From a virus (taxonomy: Duplodnaviria; Heunggongvirae; Uroviricota; Caudoviricetes): a stretch of DNA of 37,064 nucleotides. Below, piece after piece: positions 3,165-28,682 of this stretch; within the stretch, counting starts at the first letter, position 1, and each line of letters begins with the position of its first letter. Made by a program: the position numbers and the translations under genes. The DNA is taken from the IMG/VR virus record IMGVR_UViG_2778261631_000004; one strand, 5' to 3'. Under the pieces are notes generated by a model. It worked only from the letters and a program-made list of their open reading frames with translations, was not told where the DNA came from and made no database searches.

Positions 3165-4265
3165 TCATTCCATTTCGAAATCATCAATCCTCACTTCAAG
3201 CTCCAGACTGGTCGTAAAACCGTTATCCGGGCTGACAGTATGCGTCAGGGTGGTAATAGTCCATTCCGCATCATCTATCGGCTGTTTAAAGCCACTGACT
3301 TTCACTGGCATTTCCGTGTAGAGATCTGCCCGACCTTCTGCCAGTTGTAGCGAGAATGACGCAACACCGCGTTGCAGGCGTTCCCACTGCATTTTCGCTG
3401 CCCGTTCGGCGTTGCCCCGGTTGGCATAGGTGCGATTAAGTACCAGCACGTTTTCATCCGTACCCACCAGGTAATCGCCCTGCTTCGCTTCCGGCTCTTT
3501 CTTCTGCTTCTTAGTTCTGCGCTTACGCTTCACCGTGGTGCTTTCTTTCTTCGCAGGTTCGCGGGTATGCAACCAGCTGGCAATTACGCCCGTGTAGGCT
3601 CCGCGATCTGCCAGGGTAAAGCGGTGACTGTCGCCGTCCTTGCGTGTGATAGTGATCACTGGCAGTGGTTTACCAGTGGCGCTTTTGCCCTGCCCCTGCC
3701 GGATGAATAACAGATTGCCATTTTTCACCGACGCGATGGCACCGTACTGTCGCGCCAGCCGCATCAGAAAACTGCCGTCACTCTCATTAGTCTGGTCTAT
3801 ATGCTCCACGGGCTTATCCGACAGGTCTTTACCCAGTGCCATCTTCAGCTTGTGCCGCGCGGCTATTTCCTTCACCACTTCCCCGACAGTGGTCTTGTGC
3901 CACGATTTTTCACGGCGGGTATTCAGCGTTTCACGAAAATCAGCACTTCGCGCCCGGATAGTCAGGCGATCCGGTGCGCCAGTGTGTTCAATCTCGTCCA
4001 CCGTGAATGCCCCTTTCGGGAAAAGCGGCTGCCCCTTCCAGCCCAGCGCCAGCGTAATAACCGCACCACGACGCGGCAGCACGATTTTTCCGTCGGCGTC
4101 GTCCAGTTCCAGATCAAGCTGGTCCGCTTCAAAGCCCCGGTTATCCGTCAGCGTCAGACTCATCAGGCGGTTGTCCAGCACTGTGGTGATATCCCTGCCC
4201 TCAATACTGATGCTGAATGCGGGAGTTTTGTTGCCTTTGTTAAGCAGTTCAGAGCTGAAATTCAC
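3165..4265 (-). CDS. D: Tail protein D (late control protein D)
   Basis: 366-aa ORF at the end of the tail operon after U, matching P2 gpD in position and size. Confidence 0.85.
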   Translation of the reverse strand: MNFSSELLNKGNKTPAFSISIEGRDITTVLDNRLMSLTLTDNRGFEADQLDLELDDADGKIVLPRRGAVITLALGWKGQPLFPKGAFTVDEIEHTGAPDRLTIRARSADFRETLNTRREKSWHKTTVGEVVKEIAARHKLKMALGKDLSDKPVEHIDQTNESDGSFLMRLARQYGAIASVKNGNLLFIRQGQGKSATGKPLPVITITRKDGDSHRFTLADRGAYTGVIASWLHTREPAKKESTTVKRKRRTKKQKKEPEAKQGDYLVGTDENVLVLNRTYANRGNAERAAKMQWERLQRGVASFSLQLAEGRADLYTEMPVKVSGFKQPIDDAEWTITTLTHTVSPDNGFTTSLELEVRIDDFEME

Positions 4266-4747
4266 GACAGCAGCCCTCCCACCGTTTTACTGATATCACT
4301 TAAGGCAGATGTTGCCGTGTCCTGCAGATTATTCAGTTGCGCACTGAGATCACCGAACATATCGGACAATGATTCATCCACCCTTTTGAGCGACAGGGTG
4401 AACTCAATCCGGCGCGGCATACCGTCGCGGAAAAACTCCGTTTTAGTCTGATTCAGTCCCTCAATCACATACATGCCATAAATCGTGCCGCTGCCTTCAA
4501 TCAGGGGCCATGCTTTCCCCTGTTCTGCCATCTGCTCAAGTGCCAGCAACGACAGCCTGCCGCCTGTTATCTCCGGCATAAGAACACCGGAAAGCGTCAG
4601 CATGTCGTTGTCCGGTCCCAGAAACTGCGTGGACGGACGACGGTTTACCCGGCTGTTTGCCGCATGTCGCCAGCTGCGCTGATACTGCAGCTCCTGATAC
4701 GGCACGGTGCGCAGCATAAACACGTACAATCCCAGCACCATCATCAT
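4262..4747 (-). CDS. U: Tail protein U
   Basis: 161-aa ORF between tape measure and D, overlapping stop/start with both; P2 gpU-like. Confidence 0.85.
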   Translation of the reverse strand: MMMVLGLYVFMLRTVPYQELQYQRSWRHAANSRVNRRPSTQFLGPDNDMLTLSGVLMPEITGGRLSLLALEQMAEQGKAWPLIEGSGTIYGMYVIEGLNQTKTEFFRDGMPRRIEFTLSLKRVDESLSDMFGDLSAQLNNLQDTATSALSDISKTVGGLLS

Positions 4748-7700
4748 GCGTCGTATCCCCCCTGATCGCTGTAGTTACTCCTGGCTTTTGCCTTCAGCCT
4801 GCGTTCACGTTCATCAAGCTGGCGGGCCACCTCCCGCGCAATATCCTGCGCACTTTGTCCTGGCTGCGTCTGGATGATGATCTGCGTCGGTGCCTCAATG
4901 CTGTAAACGGGCGGCACAGTGGCTGCGCGACTCACCATCGCTTCTCCACCTTTCGCGGGAAGTGCCAAAGGGTGCAACGGTGGAAGCTCTGCTGGCGCGG
5001 CAGCAACGCCCATCATTCCGGCGACAACCGCAGCCAGTGCAGCGGTATTTCTCCGGCTGGTCACGTTTGCCGGGCCGTTGACAATTTCCGGCCCGTTTTC
5101 ACCGACAATGCCGAACTGCCCGCGCGGGATATACCCGCCGCTGTCATACAACCCCGCAAAGCCATATCCCCATGACGGAAAACCACCCGATGTCATCATC
5201 ACTTTACCGTCTGCATTCACCGTCGCAGGTTGCTGACGCGTCACGCTTTCCGGCAGTTTTGCCTTTGCGGCTTCTTTACTGACAATGCCGAGTTTCTCCA
5301 GCAACCAGGAAACGCCGGATTTCAGGGAGTCCAGCGGATGCATGACCATATTCAGCCCTTCCGCCAGTACCTCCCCGAATCGCCGCCCCATTGCCGCTGC
5401 ACTCTGCAGTTCGGCAGAGGTCGACTTAACGGGCGTCAGCAGATCAGTAAACCAGCCCCACAGCGCCTGTACTTTGTCGCCAATCCACTGAAACACAGGC
5501 TTAAGTGGTTCGAATGCAGCACTGATGGGACCTGCCGCCGCTTTGAATCCTTCCACCACGCCACCGAGAAATGCGGTGATGGGTTGCCAGTATTTCCAGA
5601 CAACCAGCGCCACGCCCGCCAGTGCAGTAACCACAAGACCTATCGGACTGAGCAGAGCACCTAACAGACCAGATATGGCATACAGAGCAACGCGCAGCAT
5701 CGCCAGCGGGCCGGATGCCAGCACTCGCAGCACCGCGCCTGCGGCGGACAGTCCACCGCGCAGTACCGCCAGTGGATTCATAAACATCACAGCAACAGCA
5801 CGTAAACCGGATAATCCAGACCGCAAAAGTGCAACCGGCGCACCTGCTACAGTTTTCAGGACATTTCCCGTCAGTGATGCCGTGCGGCGCAAAGACGACA
5901 ACGGCGCAGTAAGTAAACCTGCGGCGTTGCCCGATGAAGCAAGCCCGCGTCGCAGCAGTGCAAGTGGTGCGCCAGCCAACCAGGACAACACGCTGCTGGT
6001 TCGTGTTACCGCTGCCGTAACGGAAGGTAACGTTTTGATACCCAGCACAGAGAATCCCAGACGGATGACTGCCAGCGGCCCCAGCACTGCAGCCAGCGCC
6101 ACCGCTAAGGTACCGAGGCCCACGGTAACGGCAGCCACCACAGCGGCTACTTTCATCAGTGTGCCCGTCAGTTCCGGGTTAGCTTCCACCCAGCGACGCA
6201 ACGCCCCCGTGACGCTTTTCACCGTGTACAGAATATCCATCAGCGGCTGGCGCAGCGTTTCGCCCAGGCTACTGAAGGTGTTCCGCGCTCCGGTTTTGAC
6301 CAGCAACCACTGAGCAGAAAGTGAGTCTTTGTTGATGTCGGATTCTTTCTGCATGGAACCGAGCGCATCATTGCCCGCTGTCAGTTTTAGCTGGCGCTGC
6401 AGTTCCGGCAGGTTGTTTGCCAGTTTCGCCGCGTCATCGCCAAACTCTTTGCCAAACAACATGGTCATGGCAGACAGACGCTTGTCCTGCGGCAGCGCGT
6501 TCACCTTCTCCAGCACACGCTGGATAGTTCCCATCGCATCCTTCGTCATCTGCTTTTCAATCACTTCAGGATTGAGTTTCAGCAGATTCATCCCTTCAAA
6601 GAAACTCTTGCTTTGCATGGTGGCAATGGACAATTCACGCACCATCGCGTTTGCTGCACTGGCTGCAACCTCCGGCGCAGCGCCCAGTGTCAGAAAGGTG
6701 GAACCCAGCGCCGCCGCTTTACGATAATCCAGACGGTCAGCCACACCGCCCAGACGTTGCATGACATCAATAATGTCTGCCCCTTTCGACATGGCGTTAT
6801 CATCCAGATAGTTCAGCGCATCACCGAGCTGTTCAATATTGCGGGTAGGGATTTTGTAGAGCTGGGCGATTTTCCCCAGACTTTCTGACAGTTCATCCGC
6901 TGGCAGCTCAAAGGCTGTTGCCGCCTTTGCTGCCGTACTGGCGAAGGCCAGCAGGTCACGTTTCTGGTCTTCCCAGCTGTCGTCAGGGTTTGCGACGTTC
7001 ATGCGCGCACCACCTTCAACCAGTGCAGCGAAGTCCACCGCACCGTTTTCCATCGGCAACTGTTCGCTGGCAGCCTTGATGGCATCCTGCATTTCATAAA
7101 AACGTGCAGTGCGGTTGCCATTATCGTCACGCAGACCATTGACCTGCTTTGCCACACCTTTCATGGCATCTTCCATGCTGGTATAGCTTTTTACTGCCGC
7201 CATCACTGGCGTCCCCATTGCCAGCCCTGCCGCCGTGGTGGTGGCTCCGGCTCCTGCGATGCGATCGCGCACCTCCAGCGAACGGGCATAACTGGCACGC
7301 GCCACATTCATCCTGCGCTGAGCTTCCCCCAGTCGCTTCAGCCGCGCCTCCTGTTTCGACAGTTCCTGGTTATAACGTGATGTTTCACGGGCTAAACGGG
7401 CAGTTGCTCCCGCATCATCTTTCGCAGAAATTCCCGCCCGGTACAGTTCAGCACGCACAAGCGCCGTTTGCTTCTGCAAATATTTTTGTTGTTCTTCCAG
7501 ACGTTGGACTGCCAGCGTTTGCCGACCTAAAGCCACAAGATGCCTTTGTGATGGTTGTTCCATCGCCTCCAGCTCAGAGCTAAGCAAATTAGCCTTCTGT
7601 CTGGCATAGTTCAGCCTGTCGCCTAACTTCTTGTTATCGGCCTGCAGCTTGCGAAATTTTTCCAGGCTGTTACCCGCCTGATTGAGTTGCTTTAATGCGT

Positions 7701-7821
7701 CACGGGAGTTTCTGATTGCGCCAGCCAGCTCTTTCGAACTGGCCTGTGCAGCACGGAATGGGCGGGTGAGTTTGTCAACCGCATTAAGAATGACCTGCAG
7801 GCGCAGGTTATTATCACTCAT
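4744..7821 (-). CDS. T: Tail tape measure protein T
   Basis: 1025-aa Ala/Gly/Leu-rich ORF with coiled-coil N-terminal half and hydrophobic central segments, downstream of E/E'. Confidence 0.85.
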   Translation of the reverse strand: MSDNNLRLQVILNAVDKLTRPFRAAQASSKELAGAIRNSRDALKQLNQAGNSLEKFRKLQADNKKLGDRLNYARQKANLLSSELEAMEQPSQRHLVALGRQTLAVQRLEEQQKYLQKQTALVRAELYRAGISAKDDAGATARLARETSRYNQELSKQEARLKRLGEAQRRMNVARASYARSLEVRDRIAGAGATTTAAGLAMGTPVMAAVKSYTSMEDAMKGVAKQVNGLRDDNGNRTARFYEMQDAIKAASEQLPMENGAVDFAALVEGGARMNVANPDDSWEDQKRDLLAFASTAAKAATAFELPADELSESLGKIAQLYKIPTRNIEQLGDALNYLDDNAMSKGADIIDVMQRLGGVADRLDYRKAAALGSTFLTLGAAPEVAASAANAMVRELSIATMQSKSFFEGMNLLKLNPEVIEKQMTKDAMGTIQRVLEKVNALPQDKRLSAMTMLFGKEFGDDAAKLANNLPELQRQLKLTAGNDALGSMQKESDINKDSLSAQWLLVKTGARNTFSSLGETLRQPLMDILYTVKSVTGALRRWVEANPELTGTLMKVAAVVAAVTVGLGTLAVALAAVLGPLAVIRLGFSVLGIKTLPSVTAAVTRTSSVLSWLAGAPLALLRRGLASSGNAAGLLTAPLSSLRRTASLTGNVLKTVAGAPVALLRSGLSGLRAVAVMFMNPLAVLRGGLSAAGAVLRVLASGPLAMLRVALYAISGLLGALLSPIGLVVTALAGVALVVWKYWQPITAFLGGVVEGFKAAAGPISAAFEPLKPVFQWIGDKVQALWGWFTDLLTPVKSTSAELQSAAAMGRRFGEVLAEGLNMVMHPLDSLKSGVSWLLEKLGIVSKEAAKAKLPESVTRQQPATVNADGKVMMTSGGFPSWGYGFAGLYDSGGYIPRGQFGIVGENGPEIVNGPANVTSRRNTAALAAVVAGMMGVAAAPAELPPLHPLALPAKGGEAMVSRAATVPPVYSIEAPTQIIIQTQPGQSAQDIAREVARQLDERERRLKAKARSNYSDQGGYDA

Positions 7822-7824
7822 CGT

Positions 7825-8250
7825 TGGCCCCGCTTCTCTGAATCGCTTTATACCGCCATTCCAGCACTTCGGTCAGCGGCATAACGTCAGTAACGGATGG
7901 CGGCCAGTGAAAGATGGTGGCGATATCAGCCACCAGATCGTCAACCGTCAGGCTGTCGGTAAACCGGCAAGCACCGACTTCTTCAACAAAAAAGTGACAA
8001 CCTCAACCGACATGGCAGTGAGATCTGCCGGGTCCATCTCTGCAATTTCCTGTGCAGTCAGTGCCGGACTGGAGATGCGGGGGATCACGGTCATCATCGC
8101 GTTCACATCCATATCCATAATGGCCTGCAGGCGTGTACCGCGCAGCGCACCGGACTGCGGTTTACGCAGCACAATTTCGGTGATTTCTGTTTTACCGCGC
8201 TTGATGGGGGTATCCAGTTGAATGGTCTTTTCAGTCTGCTTATCGCTCAT
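7825..8250 (-). CDS. E+E' fusion made by programmed -1 frameshift (3' end approximate)
   Basis: Slippery run TTTTTTG near the 3' end of E (about 7975..7995) and open -1 frame continuing to the start of T, as in P2 E/E+E'. End coordinate not verified. Confidence 0.4.
7948..8250 (-). CDS. E: Tail assembly chaperone E
   Basis: 100-aa ORF between FII and T; its C-terminus (VTFLLKK) is encoded by a T-run slippery sequence. Confidence 0.8.
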   Translation of the reverse strand: MSDKQTEKTIQLDTPIKRGKTEITEIVLRKPQSGALRGTRLQAIMDMDVNAMMTVIPRISSPALTAQEIAEMDPADLTAMSVEVVTFLLKKSVLAGLPTA

Positions 8251-8304: not shown

Positions 8305-8820
8305 TCAGAGGCCGAGGGCGTTGCGGTGCGCTTCCATCAGGTCCACACCGCCCACAATTTCCACCATGTTGATAAGGTCCACTTCATAGAGCACCTCACC
8401 ATTTATAGTCAGCTTCGCGTAGCTGTTGGTACTGGTCACTTTGGTGGTGTTGCTTTCGCCCGTCTTCCACTCGCCGGAATCCACTTCTTTGTGACGTCCA
8501 CGCACCACAAGCTCCACGGCCTGCACTTCCCCGGTATCGTCACGCTGGATAGAGCCGGTAAAGCGCAACTGGATACCATCCACCGTGGCTTTGCCCATCT
8601 GCTTAAACAGCAGCAGTTCAGTACCACCAATGGAAAATTCCGTATCCAGTGCGCCGTCATCCAGCCCCAGATCCACATCCACTGCACCCGGCATTCCGCC
8701 GCCGCGATACTTCTCATATTTGCGGGTAAATTTCGGCAGCGTCAGCGACTCAACGATCCCCTGCCAGTTGTTCCCGTCATTAAACAGGTTCAGGTGTTTT
8801 AATTTGCGTGGTAAAGCCAT
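8305..8820 (-). CDS. FII: Major tail tube protein FII
   Basis: 171-aa ORF after the sheath gene; P2 FII-like. Confidence 0.9.
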   Translation of the reverse strand: MALPRKLKHLNLFNDGNNWQGIVESLTLPKFTRKYEKYRGGGMPGAVDVDLGLDDGALDTEFSIGGTELLLFKQMGKATVDGIQLRFTGSIQRDDTGEVQAVELVVRGRHKEVDSGEWKTGESNTTKVTSTNSYAKLTINGEVLYEVDLINMVEIVGGVDLMEAHRNALGL

Positions 8821-8829
8821 GTTGTCCCC

Positions 8830-10002
8830 TTACGCGCTGACCTGGCTGGAGAAATTCACCAGGTACTGATCGGTGATGCGCTGACGCAGCATCAGGTTTT
8901 CAAGTGGCGGCACTGGCGTGTAGTCGTAGTCGATGGTGAGTTTTCCGGCTTTCAGCGTGTCTTTGTCGTTCACCGACTCATCCAGCCAGCAATCACCACC
9001 AATGAGATAGCCCTGACTGACCAGGCTGCGCATTTTGGCGCGGATACCCTCGATAATGTCGCGGGCCAGCGACGGATTCAGCGGTTTATCCACCGCCCAC
9101 ATGTGCGCTTCTGCCATCGTGTCCGTCAGCACCTGCGCCGTGCGGGTGTAGTTTTCGAAGGCAAAGAGCGGGTCATCACTCAGGCAGCGGGAACCCCAGA
9201 AGCGAAAACCGTCTTTGCGGATAAGGGTGGTGACGTCGTTCTGGTTCAGCAGTCCCGCATCGGTTGCCGGGTCCTGCAGATCCCAGAACACATCAGCAGA
9301 AATTCCGGTGACACCGTTAACGCCCACGTTGGACAGGCTTTTGTGCCATCCGGTCTGCTCGTCAATTTTGGCGCGCAGACCAAGCGCACGGGCGGTGGCA
9401 TAAGCCGTTGCTTCGGCATTCAGCACCGTGTCCCAGCCAGTAAAGTCGGGCCAGATCAGCATTCCTTCACGCTGACTGAAGTTTTCACGGTAAGTGATTG
9501 CTTCCTGCACCGTCTTGCAACCATACGCTGACAGGTAAGCAAATCCACGCAGGCTTTGCGCCACGCTCAGCAACTCAGTAGCTACCGCCTTCGTGTCGTG
9601 ACCTGGCACGCCGAGAATGCGCGGTTTAACGCCGAGCTGTGACTGGGCAGATAACAGGGCTTTCATGCCTGTTTTTTTACCTTCAGCGGTCACTGCGCCG
9701 ATGATATTGGTCGTGGTTTCTTCTTCCGTTTCACCCTGCGGCACACGCACAACAACGGTCACGGGTTTTGCCTGGTCAGCGATGGCATCCAGCGAACGAG
9801 CCAGCGTGCCTGACTCACCCGCTTTACCGCTGGCAGTCAGCACATCAGTGATCAGCACGGGTTTATTAAGAGGAAACATTTTTGCATCGGCATCATCGCC
9901 CGTGCAGACCATACCCACGATGGCGGTGCTCACCGTGGTAATGGATCGGGTGCCTTCGTTGACTTCAACAACGCGCACCCCGTGGTGGTAATCCTGAGCC
10001 AT
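8830..10002 (-). CDS. FI: Tail sheath protein FI
   Basis: 390-aa ORF heading the F operon; P2 FI-like. Confidence 0.9.
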
Positions 10003-10144: not shown

Positions 10145-10711
10145 TCAGGGAGATTTATTGTTCTTATTTGCCGGAAATTTTCGATAAATGGTAGAAACGC
10201 CTACATCAAAAATCAGTGCAATACGCTGTCTTGATTCTCCGGCCTCGAGTAAACGCCCAATCTGTGCCCACTGTTCGCTGGTCAACTTAGGACGGCGTCC
10301 ACCTACTCTGCCTTTAGCACGAGCTGCAGCCAGCCCCGCCCTAGTACGTTCAACTATCAGTTCGCGTTCCATTTCAGCCAGGGCACCCATGACATGAAAA
10401 AAGAAACGGCCCATTGGGGTGCTGGTATCAATACTGTCAGTCAGGCTTCGGAAATTCACGCCACGCTGGCGCAGCTCTTCTATCAGCGTAACAAGATGCC
10501 GCATACTGCGCCCCAGTCTGTCCAGCTTCCAGACAACCAGCGTGTCTCCTGCCGATAGTGTCCTGAGCAGCTTTTTCAGCCCCGGTCTGTCGGACTTGGT
10601 GCCACTGATTTTATCCTCAAAAATCCGCTCACATCCCGCACAGTTCAGTGCATTGCGTTGCAAATCGGTGTTCTGGTCATTTGTTGACACGCGTACATAG
10701 CCAATAAGCAT
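10145..10711 (-). CDS. Serine-recombinase DNA invertase (Gin/Hin/Pin/Cin family)
   Basis: N-terminus MLIGYVRVSTNDQ with catalytic Ser, resolvase core and C-terminal HTH; very close to Gin/Hin. ORF track start is 2 codons upstream. Confidence 0.9.
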   Translation of the reverse strand: MLIGYVRVSTNDQNTDLQRNALNCAGCERIFEDKISGTKSDRPGLKKLLRTLSAGDTLVVWKLDRLGRSMRHLVTLIEELRQRGVNFRSLTDSIDTSTPMGRFFFHVMGALAEMERELIVERTRAGLAAARAKGRVGGRRPKLTSEQWAQIGRLLEAGESRQRIALIFDVGVSTIYRKFPANKNNKSP

Positions 10712-10738
10712 GATCATCCCCCTGAATAAAAACCGGAG

Positions 10739-11317
10739 ATGATGCCAGTTAGCCGTTATCTCTGCATTTTCATAAACGTTGGTTTAGGAGAAGGCTCTGC
10801 ATTACCGGTTGGGGTGCCTGTTCCGTGGCCTTCAGCCACTCCGCCAACAGGCTGGCTGAAATGCAATGGTGCGGCTTTTTCTGCTGAAGAATACCCGGAA
10901 CTGGCAAAGGCTTACCCGACCAATAAATTGCCTGATTTACGCGGTGAATTTATTCGTGGCTGGGATGATGGACGTGGAGTGGATGCGGGGCGAGCCTTGC
11001 TAAGTCTTCAGGATGACTCTTTTGAAGCTCACAGACATGAGTCCTTTTTTTACGCGGGTATTTCACGCAATGAAACACCATTAAAAAATCTTCCAAGTTC
11101 AGACGAGATGCTGACTTTAAGTTCCACAACTAATGCCTTGTCCCCGGACGGTATTGATGCCACCGATTCGTTAATTGGTAATGATGATTACAACTGTCTG
11201 ATTGAAGGAAATAAAAATAACAAACGAACGGCAACGGGGTTGAGTACCAGTATTGTCGGTGCAGCAGAGACACGCCCACGTAATATTTCATTTAATTACA
11301 TTGTGAGGGCTGCATGA
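10739..11317 (+). CDS. Alternative tail-fibre C-terminal segment (silent orientation, no own promoter/start expected)
   Basis: Shares the GLGE junction motif with H at the crossover site; would be fused to H after inversion. The N-terminal residues in the ORF track are read-through of the crossover region. Confidence 0.55.
   Translation: MMPVSRYLCIFINVGLGEGSALPVGVPVPWPSATPPTGWLKCNGAAFSAEEYPELAKAYPTNKLPDLRGEFIRGWDDGRGVDAGRALLSLQDDSFEAHRHESFFYAGISRNETPLKNLPSSDEMLTLSSTTNALSPDGIDATDSLIGNDDYNCLIEGNKNNKRTATGLSTSIVGAAETRPRNISFNYIVRAA
10781..10797. repeat. Left inverted-repeat crossover site
   Basis: TTGGTTTAGGAGAAGGC, 15 of 17 identical to the reverse complement of the copy inside gene H. Confidence 0.5.
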
Positions 11318-11922
11318 TGTATAACGCTATCTTAAATAATAAATTTATTGCCACAAAGGCAGGAGAGGTTACCGTTTATAACTATGACAGTGAGACACGG
11401 GAGTATATTTCTGCATCAATTGAATATCTTGCTGTGGGTGTCGGTATCCCCGCATATTCCTGTTTAGATGCTCCTGGCACACATAAGGCTGGTTATGCAA
11501 TCTGCCGTTCTGCAGATTTTAACTCATGGGAATATGTGCCAGACCATCGCGGTGAAATCGTCTTTAGCACCGAAACAGGAGAATCAAAAGAAATCACAGC
11601 TCCGGGTGATTACCCTGATAATACAACCACTATCGCCCCGTTAACACCATACGATAAATGGGATGGTGAGAAATGGGTGACGGATACCGATGCACAGCAT
11701 AGCGCCGCAGTAGATGCAGCAGAAGCACAACGCCAGTCGCTGATTGATACTGCAATGGCTTCCATCAGTCTGATTCAACTGAAATTACAGGCCGGACGGA
11801 ATCTGACGCAGGCAGAAACCAGCCGACTTAACACGGTGCTGGATTACATTGACGCGGTGACGGCAACAGATACCAGCACCGCGCCTGATATTATTTGGCC
11901 TGTATTCCCTGAGACTGATTAA
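11314..11922 (+). CDS. Tail-fibre assembly chaperone (alternative orientation)
   Basis: 202-aa ORF with typical Tfa C-terminus (TSTAPDIIWPVFPETD), overlapping the stop of the upstream fibre segment. Confidence 0.75.
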   Translation: MMYNAILNNKFIATKAGEVTVYNYDSETREYISASIEYLAVGVGIPAYSCLDAPGTHKAGYAICRSADFNSWEYVPDHRGEIVFSTETGESKEITAPGDYPDNTTTIAPLTPYDKWDGEKWVTDTDAQHSAAVDAAEAQRQSLIDTAMASISLIQLKLQAGRNLTQAETSRLNTVLDYIDAVTATDTSTAPDIIWPVFPETD

Positions 11923-12112
11923 CCTCAATTAGTATTGGTTCGCCTTTCTCATTAATTGTTAGCTCCATGCCCTGAGGAATTTCTGTCATAGTAAAAAACC
12001 AGTTGTCCTCCGGTAATTCAATAGCCCCGGTCACGTCATGAAGACCGGGGATTACTTCAGTCAAAGTAACTGGATTAAACAGGCGCACAATAAACCCTCC
12101 AGGAAAAAGCAT
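11891..12112 (-). CDS. Short ORF downstream of H, possible truncated or atypical fibre-assembly gene for the current orientation
   Basis: Occupies the position of gene G but is far shorter than typical Tfa proteins and lacks the Tfa C-terminal motif; overlaps the end of H in another frame. Confidence 0.25.
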   Translation of the reverse strand: MLFPGGFIVRLFNPVTLTEVIPGLHDVTGAIELPEDNWFFTMTEIPQGMELTINEKGEPILIEVNQSQGIQAK

Positions 12113-13466
12113 TTGATGATGGTCTGCCGTCGTACATCTGGCAGCGGGCATAAAAGCCGGTATTTGTTACCTGATCATCCACGATCATTGAAACGTGAAC
12201 ATTATTAGGTGTGCTCTCGTAATCTGTTCTTATTCTTTCCGCGATACTGATAAAACGTGAAAGTTTAGGCAGTGCAATTGGGTAAACAACTTTAGCCAGT
12301 CCATTATCATTAGATCCACCGGTTCCAAATACTTCTATTGCACCATCTGACCAGCGTATCCATGCACCATTGGCATTAGCTCCTCGCTGAATGATATATC
12401 TGGCTTCTCCCAAACCAAGGTATGTGAGAAGACCAGCTACATCCTTTCCACTCAAATTAGTCAGCGTATTGTCCAGCGGTTGTTTACCTGCCAGTGCATT
12501 AAGCATTGTCGTGGCAAAGTTCGGGTCATTCCCCAGCGCCGCCGCCAGTTCGTTCAGTGTATCCAGTGCCGCAGGTGCAGAACCCACCATTGCTGCAATC
12601 GCTGATTTCACAAAAGCTGTAGTGGCAATCTGTGTATTGTTGACCGACTGTGCCGCAGTAGGTGCTGTTGGCGTTCCGGTGAGTGCCGGACTCGACAGCG
12701 GTGCTTTTAGTGCCAGCGCATTGTTAATGGTGGTACTGAATTTCGGGTCATTGTTAATGGCTGCGGCAATTTCTTTCAGTGTGTCCAGCGTGGCTGGCGC
12801 ACCGTTAATCAGAGCAGTAATAGCGGCCTGAACAAACGCGGTGGTCGCAATCTGCGTGGTGTTATTCCCCTCCGCTGGCGTTGGCGCTTTGGGTGTTCCG
12901 GTCAATGTCGGGCTTTCTTTGGGTGCATACTGTGAATGCGGGTCCGGTGCGGCAAGATGTTTTGCCATCTTATCATCCACGAACACCTTCAGCTCCAGTA
13001 CCTTGTCATCCACATACTTGCGGGTTGCCAGCACGACGGCAGGGTCGATTTTCAGGGTGATATTGTCCGTGCTGCTGGTAATCAGCACCATGCGCACGGT
13101 CTGGGTGCGCCCGCTGCCTTCAGCCAGTTGCGGCTTATAGCTTTCCGGGCAGTTGCCTACGGCAATCAATGCCCCGGACTCATCAAACAGACCCACTTCA
13201 CGTATCCACCAACCACCCTCATTTTCAGGGATCACCTGTTCAGCAATAATCTGGCTGCTGTTCTGCGGGTCGATATAGAGCATATTCAGCGCAGCCCGGC
13301 GTTTCTCATTTACCAGTGCCGTCTGCTTTGCGTCCGGCGTCGGCAATGCTCCGCCGCCATCGCCCACCGCCATATGGGTAATTTTTAGCGGCACACCGAG
13401 CGCGGCGGCGCTGGCAAGTTTCGCCGCGCCAATATCCGTCAGCAGGGTATAAAATTTTGTGCTCAT
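12075..13466 (-). CDS. H: Tail fibre protein H
   Basis: 463-aa ORF with conserved N-terminus (MAVGDGGG) and two tandem about 70-aa repeats (TGTP...TQIATTAFV...LDTL...AAA.GNDP.F); C-terminus lies inside the invertible segment. Confidence 0.85.
   Translation of the reverse strand: MSTKFYTLLTDIGAAKLASAAALGVPLKITHMAVGDGGGALPTPDAKQTALVNEKRRAALNMLYIDPQNSSQIIAEQVIPENEGGWWIREVGLFDESGALIAVGNCPESYKPQLAEGSGRTQTVRMVLITSSTDNITLKIDPAVVLATRKYVDDKVLELKVFVDDKMAKHLAAPDPHSQYAPKESPTLTGTPKAPTPAEGNNTTQIATTAFVQAAITALINGAPATLDTLKEIAAAINNDPKFSTTINNALALKAPLSSPALTGTPTAPTAAQSVNNTQIATTAFVKSAIAAMVGSAPAALDTLNELAAALGNDPNFATTMLNALAGKQPLDNTLTNLSGKDVAGLLTYLGLGEARYIIQRGANANGAWIRWSDGAIEVFGTGGSNDNGLAKVVYPIALPKLSRFISIAERIRTDYESTPNNVHVSMIVDDQVTNTGFYARCQMYDGRPSSNAFSWRVYCAPV
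12403..12419. repeat. Right inverted-repeat crossover site (inside H)
   Basis: Reverse complement reads TTGGTTTGGGAGAAGCC and encodes the LGLGE motif of H. Confidence 0.5.
12492..12914. repeat. Intragenic tandem repeat (two about 210-bp units) within H
   Basis: Two consecutive near-identical peptide units in H; coordinates derived from residue positions, approximate. Confidence 0.5.
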
Positions 13467-14068
13467 GGATTCACTCTCATTGTGTCAATAACATGGACCG
13501 CCCCGCCTTCATGCGCGGTGCCGCCGGAAATAATTGTTTCGTTGATATACGGATAGATCGTGATTTCTTCGCCAAGATAACTGGCGGCTCCCACCCAATG
13601 CGGACCGCTGGTCTGCAGATTGATGGACATGCCGATCATGTGACGGCTACATGGTTTGGCATCGCTTATCAGTCGCTCAAGTTCCAGATAGGTATCTTCA
13701 GTGATGCCCTGGTCCTGCACACCAATGTCCAGACGAAACGTGCCCGGTGTTTCTCCGGTCTGCCACCACTCAATAATGCGGATCAGGAAGCCGAACGGCT
13801 CCACCACCCGCCGTACGGCACTGGTGGTTCCTTTGTGCTGATGAATATAAAAAGCATCCTTCACTACCTGGCGTTTGACGCTTTCTGTCCAGCCCTCGTC
13901 CCAGCGATCCACAGAGAACGCCCAGGCGAGATAAGGCAGGAAACTGGCCGGACAGGTTGCCGGATTCCACAAGTCACGCAGTGACACCTGCAGATCAGAA
14001 ATCCCGCTACAGGTTTGCGCCAGTCGGCGCTCCAGTGGCGTTGAACCCGGTGGCAGCAGACTATTCAT
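13463..14068 (-). CDS. I: Baseplate protein I
   Basis: 201-aa ORF between J and H, overlapping start/stop; P2 gpI-like. Confidence 0.8.
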   Translation of the reverse strand: MNSLLPPGSTPLERRLAQTCSGISDLQVSLRDLWNPATCPASFLPYLAWAFSVDRWDEGWTESVKRQVVKDAFYIHQHKGTTSAVRRVVEPFGFLIRIIEWWQTGETPGTFRLDIGVQDQGITEDTYLELERLISDAKPCSRHMIGMSINLQTSGPHWVGAASYLGEEITIYPYINETIISGGTAHEGGAVHVIDTMRVNP

Positions 14069-14969
14069 CCGTTCCCCCGTTGGTCACGCTCCACTGAGTA
14101 CATGATGCCGCCTGCGTTTTGTTCAGGACCACATCAGCCAGCGGTGAAGCCAGCTCCACACGTTGAACACCCTCAACATGCAGCGCGGCAAAAATAGCAC
14201 TACGGCGAATATCCCGACCGAGCCGCGTCTGACTGGCGATGTACCTCTGCAGGCTGACTTTTGCCGCTGCCATTACCGGCTCTGCTTCCGGTCCCGGATA
14301 AAGAAAAATGGTAGCTTCCACACGGTACGGGATGATTTCTGCGCTGCGAACCGTCAGACGGTCAGCCACCGGGCGGACGTTCTCACTGTTCAGGGCTTTC
14401 TCCACCACATCCAGCAAGTCTTTTTCTGCTGTTCCGTCGCCTTCACGACTCAGGACAGTCAGTACCACCTCTGCAGGTGCCGGGCTGGTTGCACTGGCAT
14501 CCGCCACCCGACCGTCGGCGCTTCGGGCATGAAATTCATAAGCGGCAGTTGGCCCCGCAACAGAAAGCCCTTCAAAGGCTGCGGGCACACGTAGGCGTAA
14601 CGCTTCATCGCTTTCCATCACAGCCGCAACGGGTGGCACAGCGTCATTATCAGCAGGCGTCACCGTCAGGCGTTTCACGTTGTAGTTGGCAGCGAGCTGG
14701 TCAAGATCGCCGCCCATCGCGTAAGCCACCATCACAGCCTGCGCGGCTTCGTTAATGCGCTGGCGCAGAAGCAACTCACGGTAAGCGTTCTCCTGCAGCA
14801 ATTTGGTGACGGGTTCAGATTCCAGTTCCAGCGTGCGGATCACGGCTTCCTGCTCATCTTTCGGATGAAGCGCAACAAATTCGGCCTTGCGTTCGGCAAG
14901 CAGCGTCTCAAAGTCCGGCACATCGACAATCTGCGGCGCAGGCAACTGCGAAAGGTCAATCACTGCCAT
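14061..14969 (-). CDS. J: Baseplate assembly protein J
   Basis: About 302-aa ORF; start placed at internal Met (MAVIDLSQ) so that it overlaps W by a few nt; P2 gpJ-like. Confidence 0.8.
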   Translation of the reverse strand: MAVIDLSQLPAPQIVDVPDFETLLAERKAEFVALHPKDEQEAVIRTLELESEPVTKLLQENAYRELLLRQRINEAAQAVMVAYAMGGDLDQLAANYNVKRLTVTPADNDAVPPVAAVMESDEALRLRVPAAFEGLSVAGPTAAYEFHARSADGRVADASATSPAPAEVVLTVLSREGDGTAEKDLLDVVEKALNSENVRPVADRLTVRSAEIIPYRVEATIFLYPGPEAEPVMAAAKVSLQRYIASQTRLGRDIRRSAIFAALHVEGVQRVELASPLADVVLNKTQAASCTQWSVTNGGTDE

Positions 14970-15315
14970 TCTCTGCTCCTGTTGATACGGAAAGGGAAAC
15001 AGGCACACCGTTATTACGCCGCCCGGTCAGCCCCACCACCATTGAACCGTCAAAATTGCTTTTAATGGTGATGGAATCCAGCGTCAGCCGTGGCTCCCAG
15101 CGACTCAGCGCCACATACACTGCCGACATGACCTGCAGGCGTAATGCCGGATTTTGTGGCTGGTCTATCAGTGTCGACAGCAGGGAACCATATTCACGAC
15201 GGGCAATGCGGCTACCCTGCGGTGTCAGTAGAATGTCCCGCACCGACTGACGCAGATGGTCAATATCAGTAATGGCTTTACCGCTGGTATTGTTCATCCC
15301 GATATAAAGCGTCAT
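14956..15315 (-). CDS. W: Baseplate wedge protein W (gp25-like)
   Basis: 119-aa ORF between V and J. Confidence 0.8.
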   Translation of the reverse strand: MTLYIGMNNTSGKAITDIDHLRQSVRDILLTPQGSRIARREYGSLLSTLIDQPQNPALRLQVMSAVYVALSRWEPRLTLDSITIKSNFDGSMVVGLTGRRNNGVPVSLSVSTGAENGSD

Positions 15316-24759: not shown

Positions 24760-25455
24760 TTAAAATTTAGCAAGCTCCATATAAGAAATAGCATCATTAA
24801 AGACCGACACATGTTCTTCAGGAATTATTGCCGAGGCTCCACTAGTTAGTTCAAAGCTAAATTTAGAGTCATGATATAGCCCCCCAACTTTTATTTTATC
24901 GAGTTTAAAATCATTATCCAAAACAAATTTTTTCAAATCATTTAGAGCATCTCCACTAGAATTCAGCTCTAAACACGCCCTTGTTTTATCAGTAACAGGA
25001 ACATTTGAAACTTTCACCTTTGAGATGGCGAAAACTTTGACTCCAAACTCCTCCCTAATTATTTTCATAAAAGCCTTGAGATCTACCGTCAAGTTTCCAT
25101 AGGCAACATTTACCCCTTCACCTTTTGACAAGAAATCAATAAAAGACTTAACTGTCTTTGGAGGATTATAAAAAGTCAACAAACATAATTTATTACTTAA
25201 TGTTTGGATAGAAAAACCAATCTGTTCAAAAACAATCCTTTCGAACTCTAAAATATCACCAAATGGATCAGAAACTGGCTCCAACATTATAGTTTTTTTA
25301 TTAAAAGTCGCAGATATTCCATTGTGAATAGTTTCAAACTTAGTAAAACCAGCACCAATAGCATCAGAATAAGGGGTGTTTTTGATAAAATCAAAGATCG
25401 CTTCAGAACTGGTTCTGATCTTTAATCTCATCCACTTTAATCTTAACTGTGACAT
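24760..25455 (-). CDS. Hypothetical protein, cargo gene 3 of 3 (about 231 aa), no recognisable motif
   Basis: A+T-rich ORF; ATG with AAGGAG Shine-Dalgarno 5 nt upstream, 2 codons inside the ORF-track start; 14-nt gap from upstream gene. Confidence 0.6.
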   Translation of the reverse strand: MSQLRLKWMRLKIRTSSEAIFDFIKNTPYSDAIGAGFTKFETIHNGISATFNKKTIMLEPVSDPFGDILEFERIVFEQIGFSIQTLSNKLCLLTFYNPPKTVKSFIDFLSKGEGVNVAYGNLTVDLKAFMKIIREEFGVKVFAISKVKVSNVPVTDKTRACLELNSSGDALNDLKKFVLDNDFKLDKIKVGGLYHDSKFSFELTSGASAIIPEEHVSVFNDAISYMELAKF

Positions 25456-25474
25456 ATCCACTCCTTATGATGAA

Positions 25475-26539
25475 TTAGCTAATTTCCATTATAATAGAAT
25501 AAGCTCTATTTTCAATTAATTTATTAAATCTATCGGTTTCTCTAGCTGAAAGCTTTTGAGGTTTACTGAAATATTGACCGTTAGACTTATATTTTTTCAC
25601 TCCTTTTACTAAATATGAAAAATTAGTACAGTTTAGTGGATCTCCGAATTGAGCTTCGAGTTCATAAATATCTGGGTCTGCTAGTTTCTCTTTAACCTTC
25701 CATTTTATTTTCCAGATATAAAAGCCTCTATCATAAAGATCACTAAGTTCATCAGATTTAAGAACTCCCTCTCCTTTCAGAGATGCTTTTGACACATGAA
25801 CTCCAGTTTCAGTATTTCCCTCTTCTGCTTCTATTGTTTCAGGTTTTGGATGATATACATAAGCATCAGTAACATCGTCTAATTCATATCCATCTAGGCT
25901 ACGGATTAATTTATCGAAAAACAGTGTCCTAACATCTGCGGAGCTATTATGAGCAAGAGTAATTTCGTTTAATTTTAAATCAAGATTACTGTCATTATCT
26001 TGTTCACTCTGGATCGAAATTATATGCCCGAGGAGGAGATCTTCATAATCTTTGAGATTCTCGTTATCGGGACGACGGATGCTATAACCTTTATCAATAG
26101 GCTCGATTTCAATTAAAGCTTCTTTATTTACAGCCTGCTTAAAATCGCTTTTACTATAATTGGTCGATAGATATCTTATATCTATAAGAACTCGAGAACC
26201 ATCAATAATAATTTTACAATAATCATCCTGAGCAGTTATTTCTTTTTTTAACTTCTCTGCTGCCACTATGATATCGTCCTTAGTGACACTGGATTCAATT
26301 CTTACACATGTATTTTTTTCAGCTCTTGTCTGACCTCCGAGTAATGTTGCTATCTTCTGATGTTCATAATAATCATGAGTCATCCGAGAGTAGTTTCTGG
26401 CTAGATCTTTTCTAGGGGTTTTTTTACAAATAATAGTACCTCTTTCCAAGAAAAGATCTTGTATTTCATTTAATGTAATCTGCTTTTGATTCAAAGCATC
26501 ACATAAAGCCTTATCAGTTACACTATGAATATTTTTCAT
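25475..26539 (-). CDS. Hypothetical protein, cargo gene 2 of 3 (about 354 aa), no recognisable motif
   Basis: A+T-rich ORF; start ATG overlaps the stop of the upstream gene in an ATGA arrangement with a GGGAG Shine-Dalgarno; ORF-track start is 4 codons upstream. Confidence 0.65.
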   Translation of the reverse strand: MKNIHSVTDKALCDALNQKQITLNEIQDLFLERGTIICKKTPRKDLARNYSRMTHDYYEHQKIATLLGGQTRAEKNTCVRIESSVTKDDIIVAAEKLKKEITAQDDYCKIIIDGSRVLIDIRYLSTNYSKSDFKQAVNKEALIEIEPIDKGYSIRRPDNENLKDYEDLLLGHIISIQSEQDNDSNLDLKLNEITLAHNSSADVRTLFFDKLIRSLDGYELDDVTDAYVYHPKPETIEAEEGNTETGVHVSKASLKGEGVLKSDELSDLYDRGFYIWKIKWKVKEKLADPDIYELEAQFGDPLNCTNFSYLVKGVKKYKSNGQYFSKPQKLSARETDRFNKLIENRAYSIIMEIS

Positions 26540-27600
26540 TTCGGCTCCCAAGAAATAACCTCAGAAGAAAAGAATTCTTTTACAGTAGAGACAACTTTGA
26601 CATCCAGATCTTCAAGTCTCTTTTTAGCCTCTTCATCCAGTCCATACTCATGAACATACTTTTCGATCCCACGCTGAAAATGCGACATAACTCTATTATC
26701 TTTCTCACGATACGCCAATCTTATTCTAATTTTATTTATACCATCTAAAATTTGATAATTAGAAAGCAAGTCTAGCAAATAAAAGAATTCATTATCGCTA
26801 TTACCTTTTCTATTGTAATATATAACAAATCCCTCTGGATAAACCATTTCCTCAATACCTTTAGCCCTATTGAATTTATAAACAGGACCATGTTTAATAA
26901 TCATAAATGGTGATAACAAAACTTCAATAGTTGCAGGAAGGTATTTTTCAGTTACAGCAACCTTATGGAAAATAAGTTGAGGATAATAGAATCCATAATC
27001 CTCATCTGGAAATTCTTTTTTTGCAATCAAGTCATTCATATCATTCGTTACTGCCAACATATAATTAATAAGAAATGGATCAATTATATGAATTTGCTGA
27101 CCAGCACATAACGGAATCTTTTCTAAGTTTACAGCCTTATCTCTCCTTCCTTTAGTAGGTTTAGGAGGATTAAAGAAATCATAAAAATCATGTTGCAATT
27201 GATTATCATGATTAAAAACAAATAATAAACCTCGAACTTCGAAATCAATTTGAGAAAAGTTATATTTTTCTGACCATTCCTGGCTATATCGAGCACAATC
27301 AATTGTTTTTGCTAAAGACTCTAATGCAGATTCTATCTTTGTTGCATTAATAGAACCAGCCTTATAACTTTTCAAATCAGTATTTAAATAAATAATTTTA
27401 TTTAAATATGGATCTTTATAACTAAATACCACATCCACTGGGTGTGTGTGCTTTTGTTTTTTACCTTCAGGCTTATGTTTTGTTTCATTATCACAAGAGA
27501 AATCTTGGTCACAGGGGCCATGCTGTTGCCACTTAAAACGACTCATAAGATCGTTAGAAATGCGTTTTGCTAAGTCTTCAATAGGGCCATTCTCTGCCAT
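26536..27600 (-). CDS. Hypothetical protein, cargo gene 1 of 3 (354 aa), no recognisable motif
   Basis: A+T-rich ORF with AAGGA Shine-Dalgarno upstream of the ATG; no Walker A or other signature visible. Confidence 0.65.
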   Translation of the reverse strand: MAENGPIEDLAKRISNDLMSRFKWQQHGPCDQDFSCDNETKHKPEGKKQKHTHPVDVVFSYKDPYLNKIIYLNTDLKSYKAGSINATKIESALESLAKTIDCARYSQEWSEKYNFSQIDFEVRGLLFVFNHDNQLQHDFYDFFNPPKPTKGRRDKAVNLEKIPLCAGQQIHIIDPFLINYMLAVTNDMNDLIAKKEFPDEDYGFYYPQLIFHKVAVTEKYLPATIEVLLSPFMIIKHGPVYKFNRAKGIEEMVYPEGFVIYYNRKGNSDNEFFYLLDLLSNYQILDGINKIRIRLAYREKDNRVMSHFQRGIEKYVHEYGLDEEAKKRLEDLDVKVVSTVKEFFSSEVISWEPK

Positions 27601-27891: not shown

Positions 27892-28569
27892 CTAGAACGT
27901 GACAGCCTTGTCAAAGCCAGAAATAATTGTATAAGAAATAGACGAGTTATCAGCCTTGTTCACTTTGAACTTGGCACCTTTGTAAGCGATAACATCACTT
28001 CCCTTAGAATCTACAGAAAAATCTGTTGTAAATGCTGCACGAGCCATATCGTTTGCAAATTCACGATAGGTGAACTTCATTACACCGCCTGCATTTCCAT
28101 TGTATTCGATAGTCTTAACCAATGAATTACTCACTCGACACAGCCCATCAGGAACACGTTTGATAGAAATTTCTGATGCAGTATAAGAAGTGCCATTTGG
28201 CGGTGATATCTCATTTTTTGCAGCATCGTAACTAACATAATCAACATAGTTACCGATTTGCCCATAGAGATTTTTTAACGCAACAGCTTGAGGGTTATGA
28301 TAATTGCGGTAAATTCCATTCCCCTCACTGCAATATGTACCAGCAGCGATAGAAGACAATGCACCATTAGCCGCACCAAGTTCTAGTACGTCCGTTTTAA
28401 ATCCAGTAGCAGATGTGATAATGGGATCGCCCATGTAGGCGGTAGCACTTTGCCCAATAGCTGGCTTCACCACTTCAATAGCAGTGATATTTCGGTTAGA
28501 AGCATGTGGCACGCAACCAGTTAGGATTACAGCAAGAGATATTGGTAACGCTACATTATTAATTTTCAT
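27892..28569 (-). CDS. Predicted lipoprotein of unknown function (accessory/moron gene)
   Basis: Signal peptide ending in lipobox LTGC (MKINNVALPISLAVILTGC), Gly/Ser/Thr/Asn-rich mature part; start placed at internal Met; own terminator downstream. Confidence 0.65.
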   Translation of the reverse strand: MKINNVALPISLAVILTGCVPHASNRNITAIEVVKPAIGQSATAYMGDPIITSATGFKTDVLELGAANGALSSIAAGTYCSEGNGIYRNYHNPQAVALKNLYGQIGNYVDYVSYDAAKNEISPPNGTSYTASEISIKRVPDGLCRVSNSLVKTIEYNGNAGGVMKFTYREFANDMARAAFTTDFSVDSKGSDVIAYKGAKFKVNKADNSSISYTIISGFDKAVTF

Positions 28570-28682
28570 TTTTAGCCTATTATTCTTTTCTTGACAAAAA
28601 ACAAGGCGATATCTGATTGACATCGCCTCTCACTCATATGTAACCCTTTTTGATTAGTAAAAACAAGCGTCTATTGACAAAA

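Follow-up and report, generated by a model that had tools for sequence, protein, structure and literature searches.

The 37,064-nucleotide stretch of DNA analyzed here (IMG/VR record IMGVR_UViG_2778261631_000004; hereafter the window, meaning this whole stretch) holds a P2-like (Peduoviridae) prophage inside an Escherichia chromosome, and the tail genes of this prophage include a DNA-inversion switch. Taking the explanation as a whole, we are confident that a Gin-family serine DNA invertase recombines two inverted, gix-like sites and so flips a 1,638-bp segment that reaches into the tail-fiber gene, H. Each flip swaps the last third of the fiber protein together with the accessory gene that follows H. 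The switch is an ordinary one of the Mu-Gin type, a known kind; the sole part that may be new is a domain-minimal helper, encoded by a 65-amino acid (aa) gene of the presently expressed arm that we call "mini-Tfa."

Crossover sites, invertase and inversion

The invertible segment (10780..12417) measures 1,638 bp from crossover to crossover and has at each end a 26-bp site of the 12-2-12 form. The left, gix-like site (10767..10792) reads TTTTCATAAACG TT GGTTTAGGAGAA, with its central TT at 10779-10780, and the right site (12405..12430), inside H, reads TTCTCCCAAACC AA GGTATGTGAGAA, with its central AA at 12417-12418. A sequence-only reading that preceded this analysis had described an invertase gene adjoining a segment of about 1.6 kb bounded by 17-bp inverted repeats, one of them inside H at its LGLGE codons. 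Exact alignment bore this description out: the repeats are indeed gix-like and inverted relative to each other, agreeing at 15 of 17 positions (10779-10795, TTGGTTTAGGAGAAGGC, versus the reverse complement of 12402-12418, TTGGTTTGGGAGAAGCC), and they constitute the inner halves of the two 26-bp sites. Since the two copies share no exact 9-mer seed, a repeat finder run on the window did not report them. A 26-bp Din-type consensus with up to 3 mismatches allowed matched twice in the whole 37 kb, and 0 matches were obtained in 100 shuffles. The right site occupies L-G-L-G-E codons of H and the left site G-L-G-E codons of a plus-strand open reading frame (ORF). Religation after a 180-degree rotation needs the same central dinucleotide in both sites, and this dinucleotide is AA in each when the two are read in one sense. 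A multi-site inversion system, of the kind represented by Min of p15B or by the three-repeat shufflon of enteropathogenic Escherichia coli (EPEC), was also considered and rejected, as there are just two sites at this threshold in the 37 kb.

The invertase gene (10145..10711, minus strand; mechanical ORF 10145-10717) encodes 188 aa counted from the third Met. Its product contains the Pfam domains Resolvase (PF00239, 2.3e-53) and HTH_7 (PF02796, 5.8e-16) and matches PHROG 125 (DNA invertase). Its residues 1-183 form a gap-free alignment with the structures 3UJ3/4M6F of Mu Gin (E 1e-92), and its identity to Mu Gin is 75%. The two domains and the gap-free alignment confirm its earlier assignment to the Gin/Hin type. 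In Gin, S9 is the nucleophile serine, and an M114V change renders the enzyme Fis-independent (PMC3575834). In the window protein the catalytic Ser9 is kept (motif VRVSTNDQ) and M114 is wild type; given this serine and full-length collinearity with Gin, we found no inactivating change in the invertase.

The arrangement around the gene is likewise that of Mu. The invertase is read away from the invertible segment, and the DNA comprising site and gene is 81% identical to Mu gixR-gin, with a single 1-base gap, which falls in the spacer upstream of the gene; the coding part aligns to Mu gin with no gaps. The left site aligns with gixR, and its distance to the invertase start is 68 bp, compared with 67 bp in Mu. 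In the Mu gin and Hin systems, a Fis-dependent recombinational enhancer is reported to lie in the 5' part of the invertase gene. Collinear with that part of Mu gin is a putative Fis enhancer region at 10627..10690 (minus strand), within the 5' coding part of the window invertase, where two 15-mers that begin with G and end with C (GTGTCAACAAATGAC and GTGCGGGATGTGAGC) align with their Mu counterparts; the 81% identity of this region to Mu gin is not separable from coding conservation.

Inversion of the segment occurs. Both orientations are present in public genomes, sibling isolates differ, and one strain, NCTC8623, holds both, which refutes the notion that only one orientation is ever observed. 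To count orientations, we searched 5,426 complete E. coli genomes with 2.6-kb queries, in the window orientation and after computed inversion, taking as a match any genome with at least 80% of the query in a single collinear piece. The window orientation was found in 26 genomes and the computed flipped orientation in 41; these counts come from finished assemblies, each of which shows one arbitrary state of a mixed population. Two pairs of E. coli sibling isolates (64 and 61; 82.0312 and 82.0311) have the segment at identical coordinates in opposite orientation, and E. coli W and KO11FL are opposite in orientation to several W-like genomes with the same IS3 insertion (described below). In NCTC8623 (NZ_LR134234.1; loci L001 and L017) the prophage region is found twice, ~22 kb apart across the record origin. 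The flanks of the two copies are 99.9-100% identical while a 1,643-bp piece between them is inverted, and the ends of this inversion map to window positions 10779-10793 and 12404-12421, i.e., the predicted sites. The duplication looks less like two prophages than like an untrimmed assembly overlap in which a single culture was caught in both states; the copies are annotated with differing frameshifts. Draft genomes of Intestinirhabdus, Pantoea, and Xenorhabdus include contigs that, over their full length of 1.25-1.7 kb, run exactly from one site core to the other; an assembler yields such contigs when the reads hold both orientations.

A separate match concerns the mobility of the switch. In E. 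coli AL.H8 (NZ_CP082349.1), positions 1204896-1206969 correspond to window 10347-12421 at 96.7% identity and are annotated pinE. The invertase and the entire segment match, the match ending at the right crossover site, and the constant part of the fiber differs. This pattern is consistent with the switch moving between prophages as a module.

Two fiber tips with unequal arms

Gene H (12075-13466, minus strand) encodes 463 aa as now assembled and begins with the N-terminal Pfam domain Phage_tail_fib (6.7e-65). When 10779-12418 was inverted in silico, H remained open in both states, with 463 aa now and 528 aa in the flipped state, so that 110 residues follow LGLGE in the present orientation and 175 in the other. 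The sequence-only reading had proposed an in-frame crossover inside H with unequal arms of about 110 aa (expressed) and about 180 aa (silent), and the computed fusions agree with it on both points.

The silent arm carries the alternative C-terminus of H (10781..11317, plus strand), of the collar, Mu-S, and HK97-Stf type, which has matches to Pfam Collar (1.7e-15) and tail-fiber PHROGs and a weak match to the T4 short-fiber receptor-binding region. It is followed by a full-length Tfa gene (11314..11922, plus strand; 202 aa; Pfam Caudo_TAP 3e-32; PHROG 105, tail fiber assembly), the chaperone that had been predicted for this arm. At the DNA level, the arm and HK97 stf-tfa are 92% identical. The mechanical ORF of the silent tip starts outside the segment, at ATG 10739, and a scan for promoters found no promoter-like site for the silent arm or the ATG 10739 ORF in the present orientation. 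This ATG has GGAG just 5' of it and supplies 13 codons outside the left crossover site (10739-10780); therefore, whichever tip is silent reads as a free-standing ORF. Such silent-tip ORFs stand in databases as hypothetical proteins of 119-131 aa.

The expressed C-terminal receptor-binding domain of H (12075..12416, minus strand) consists of the 110 aa after LGLGE and has a fold like that of gp53 and the R-pyocin foot. By sequence it had no significant Pfam match (PF21882, Gp53-like_C, scored 17.5 bits against a cut-off of 24.9), and a sequence-profile search of the PDB returned nothing significant. A fold search, in turn, showed that the tip shares its fold with AP22 gp53 and the R1/R2 pyocin foot (PDB 4MTM, 6CXB, and 6CL6), from which it differs in sequence, at 16-19% identity. 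Its relatives are silent-arm ORFs in E. coli, Salmonella, Enterobacter, Serratia, and Xenorhabdus; remoter ones occur in Cronobacter phage JK004 and Xanthomonas phage DIBBI, whose protein DIBBI_027 reaches 25.7 bits to Gp53-like_C. In P2-type and related tails, the expressed tip and its relatives represent small, lectin-like domains for receptor binding.

In the present state, then, H ends in a lectin-like foot followed by the 65-aa gene, and in the flipped state in a collar/HK97-Stf tip followed by the 202-aa Tfa. We infer that virions made in one orientation differ in receptor specificity from those made in the other, such that a lysogen population would release phage of either of two specificities. 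Of the phase-variable host range put forward by the sequence-only reading, the switching of tips is thus borne out by sites, reading frames, and the two orientations in public genomes, and the change in host range itself would follow from it.

A conserved 65-residue accessory gene

In the expressed arm, H is followed by mini-Tfa (11891..12088, minus strand), which has a GTG start after GGAGG and overlaps the H stop. A very short, atypical ORF had been noted at this place; a short ORF does stand there, but the gene has 65 aa from GTG 12088, not the 86 aa of the mechanical ORF (11891-12151). The GTG is found six bases after GGAGG, the alignments with PHROG 5400 and with every homologue begin at residue 22 of the 86-aa ORF, and most relatives have an ATG at that start. 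Since the start of mini-Tfa and the end of H overlap by 14 nt (GTGCGCCTGTTTAA), we take the two genes to be translationally coupled. The protein matched PHROG 5400, annotated "unknown function," at positions 1-66 of the 145-position profile and matched no Pfam family at E <= 0.01, hence not PF02413 (Caudo_TAP). A search of the literature yielded no mention of the protein by its accession, its PHROG number, or its motif MRLFNP.

What kind of protein this is was suggested by profile comparisons. By hhalign, mini-Tfa aligned with residues 1-58 of P0171, a 131-aa protein with a Caudo_TAP domain (3e-20), at a probability of 99.1%. Like P0171, JK004_1 (128 aa) has an N-domain homologous to mini-Tfa followed by a Caudo_TAP C-terminal domain, and a profile that includes JK004_1 reaches Mu U (5YVQ) via the C-terminal part of JK004_1 only. 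Members of the mini-Tfa family are without this conserved C-terminal helical domain, ending 3-11 residues past the N-domain core. The mini-Tfa profile showed no similarity by hhalign to Mu U or to the 202-aa Tfa of the window, and it shared only a 17-residue motif with the 141-aa Tfa of Enterobacter soli. Tfa proteins are modular, with a non-conserved N-terminal domain that binds the fiber tip and a conserved C-terminal helical domain that brings about trimerization and assembly (PMC9608196, summarizing work on Mu Tfa). Considering this division of labor together with the homology to the N-domain, the 65-aa protein looks like the fiber-binding module alone, i.e., the N-terminal domain of Tfa minus its C-terminal domain.

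The idea that mini-Tfa is a truncated copy of the 147-aa chaperone of phage 500465-1 was rejected, since BLASTP found no similarity for either the protein or the tip; that arm is therefore a different cassette. The full 65-aa query also matched P0156 (2,709 aa) 15 times and P0163 (1,373 aa) five times, at 26-30% identity (E 2e-32 and 1e-11, respectively). Both are giant proteins of the Spiralin/DUF285 kind, typical of Mollicutes, and have many spurious-looking Pfam matches; their similarity to the query may be an effect of repeats or composition, not homology.

The mini-Tfa family comprises 123 proteins, nearly all of 57-66 aa, from hosts that include E. coli, Enterobacter, Salmonella, Citrobacter, Hafnia, Xenorhabdus, and Erwinia. 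An identical protein is encoded on ~1,000 E. coli contigs, and the cassette is present in 116 of the 5,426 complete E. coli genomes (~2%). Each protein has a 55-residue core (MRLFNP...GEPxLxD), then a variable tail of 3-11 residues. In the core, compared among ten loci from eight genera, the proportion of nonsynonymous differences (pN) was 0.02-0.32 versus 0.39-0.91 for synonymous ones (pS). Where the synonymous rate (dS) was correctable, its ratio to the nonsynonymous rate (dN/dS) came to 0.03-0.24, with synonymous sites saturated. Identity among the aligned loci was 54-96% for mini-Tfa, compared with 33-95% for the tip before it. Of the 11 other aligned loci, 10 have the gene directly behind a tip of the same family; in the eleventh, from Erwinia dacicola, an insert lies there. 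Together with its tip, the gene is also found opposite differing partner arms in invertible segments of Enterobacter soli, Xenorhabdus, phage S164, and Pantoea. Judging from the substitution pattern of the core, mini-Tfa is under purifying selection.

This conservation bears on whether the short arm is a decaying remnant, in which a deletion took the C-terminal half of a Tfa and left the 65-aa ORF as a non-functional stump, with defective fibers as the outcome. Full-length relatives with the same N-domain and a Caudo_TAP domain do exist (JK004_1, P0171, and the 145-position PHROG 5400), the conserved core of the window ORF stops exactly at the end of the convergent Tfa gene, the final 10 codons of the ORF lie antisense to this Tfa gene, and in the E. 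coli W lineage the ORF is broken by IS3. However, the short form is the rule in at least seven genera, and its frame is intact in 12 of 12 aligned loci, with start and ribosome-binding site kept in 11 (the exception is again Erwinia dacicola, where the insert brings a different upstream sequence). The low dN/dS, with synonymous sites saturated, is also at odds with decay, as is the state of the adjoining tip, which is intact and diversifying as receptor-binding domains do. Furthermore, the Pantoea and Xenorhabdus genes, which no Tfa gene overlaps, end in a stop codon of their own with a terminator-like hairpin behind it, and shortness is therefore, unlike in the window, independent of running into a convergent Tfa gene. 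A strong hairpin of this type lies between convergent mini-Tfa and Tfa genes at 530-600 of the Pantoea locus (L013) and at ~4180-4210 of the Xenorhabdus loci (L011 and L012) and could terminate transcription in both directions; the window has no such hairpin, its mini-Tfa and Tfa genes overlapping by 32 nt instead. We consider decay quite improbable. The sequence-only reading had left open a degenerate arm or an unusual short chaperone, and of these the conservation and purifying selection disfavor the former, leaving a short chaperone as probably the better reading.

A split chaperone, in which mini-Tfa provides the binding domain and the trimerization domain comes in trans from the 202-aa Tfa or from the Tfa of another prophage, seems unlikely to us. 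In its favor, a mini-Tfa arm is paired with a full-Tfa arm in every invertible segment examined (the window, L010, L012, L013, and phage S164), E. coli genomes that match the region hold a median of two such places, and Tfa C-domains are said, from work on Mu Tfa, to be conserved and partly interchangeable. However, the promoter scan showed no site driving the silent arm in the present orientation, and the two domains would need to associate non-covalently, which is unsupported here. That the 65-aa protein has nothing to do with fiber assembly, being for instance a small regulator or exclusion factor riding in the cassette, would fit its lack of a Pfam family and its "unknown function" PHROG, but its homology to the N-domain of bona fide Tfa proteins, its place right after one tip family, and its overlap with the fiber stop codon make this a very remote prospect.

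With a minimal chaperone thus preferred, we are evenly divided on the specific proposal that mini-Tfa would be a minimal chaperone, or a cap, that binds the foot domain, the small tip needing no Tfa C-domain to trimerize. Just short of that, and tentatively, we suggest that the 57-66-aa family may be a distinct functional class of minimal accessory proteins, Tfa N-domains that bind the fiber and act with no C-terminal domain, paired specifically with tips of the gp53/R-pyocin-foot kind in a ~500-bp cassette within invertible segments of P2-type phages and tailocins of Enterobacterales. Several observations weigh on the other side. A single-sequence structure model of mini-Tfa had a predicted local distance difference test score (pLDDT) of 51, which is unusable, giving no structural support for the fold or for tip binding, and the invariance of the first five residues is in part imposed by the conserved H terminus, which they overlap. 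Genomes of the E. coli W lineage (NC_017664, NC_017635, KO11FL, CP026085, and others) have an IS3-family insert at the equivalent of about window position 12062, near the mini-Tfa start; it interrupts the gene, which is therefore dispensable for the lysogen. The segment occurs in both orientations among these IS3-carrying genomes. The short-arm orientation could in principle be merely tolerated without being functional. With regard to the switch as a whole, the evidence for inversion comes from public assemblies of other strains.

Genomic setting and known inversion systems

The nearest complete genomes to the region are those of E. coli, with identity up to 97.8%, and the chromosomal genes ybjM and ybjL are located at the left end of the window. 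The tail module of the P2-like prophage is encoded on the minus strand. It includes genes for the tape measure (4744-7821), E (7948-8250), the tube (8305-8820), and the sheath, FI (8830-10002), followed by the invertase, which is thus positioned between FI and H, and, beyond the segment, by H, gene I (13463-14068), and gene J (14061-15008). The position of H between gene I and the invertible segment follows P2 gene order. Beside the head genes, in the P2 cargo region (24760-27600, minus strand), three adjoining genes encode proteins of 233, 358, and 354 aa without a Pfam domain, which match the PADLOC defense candidates Hp3 (1e-10), Hp2 (2e-39), and Hp1 (1e-64), respectively; a neighboring ORF of 243 aa (27892-28623) matches nothing.

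Invertible fiber segments are classical in Mu, P1, e14, and p15B. As in the G segment of Mu with Gin (and in the C segment of P1 with Cin and the P segment of e14 with Pin), the invertase gene in the window lies just outside the segment and reads away from it. As in Mu, the sites are of the 26-bp 12-2-12 form with one inside the fiber gene, and the fiber C-terminus is exchanged together with a downstream accessory gene. In contrast to Mu, the switch here belongs to a P2-like prophage, in which it is placed between the sheath gene and H. Its segment is 1.6 kb long rather than ~3 kb, its two arms are of unequal length and share no relationship, and, in place of the two full Tfa genes U and U', one arm has a 65-aa gene for an N-domain only. 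In P2-like prophages of EPEC E2348/69, an invertase and inverted repeats vary the fiber C-terminus, and both variants were shown by experiment to coexist in culture (Goldberg et al., 2014; PMC4272514). One of those loci is a three-repeat shufflon, whereas the window has two sites only.

P2-type tailocins such as carotovoricin Er and the "pantailocins" of Pantoea resemble the window in combining a P2-type tail module, an invertase, and alternative cassettes of tip and chaperone, although they are tailocins and not a prophage. In Pantoea stewartii ICMP 10132, an active tailocin locus with an invertase has a chaperone gene described as "substantially shorter" (bioRxiv 10.1101/2023.05.07.539753). 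This short chaperone may belong to the same family as mini-Tfa, and the same mini-Tfa cassette occurs on a Pantoea wallisii contig. With Tfa chaperones in general (Mu U, PDB 5YVQ; Caudo_TAP), mini-Tfa shares a gene position directly after the fiber gene and N-domain homology to full-length members, but it has neither their conserved C-terminal helical domain nor a Pfam match. More broadly, "Phage tail protein I" and "tail fiber assembly protein" have been found enriched beside predicted programmed inversions (PMC9881135).

The switch represents a further case of host-range bet-hedging via fiber inversion, which has been shown experimentally in Mu, P1, e14, and P2-like prophages of E. coli. In the current view, the conserved C-terminal domain of Tfa drives fiber trimerization. 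Mini-Tfa, as a widespread, selected form without that domain, suggests either that some small lectin-like tips need the binding domain only, or that the N-domain has a role of its own, for example as a cap or co-adhesin. When R-type tailocins or P2-like phages are retargeted, the tip has to be moved with its cognate helper, and a foot-like tip with mini-Tfa would be a very compact module for this purpose.

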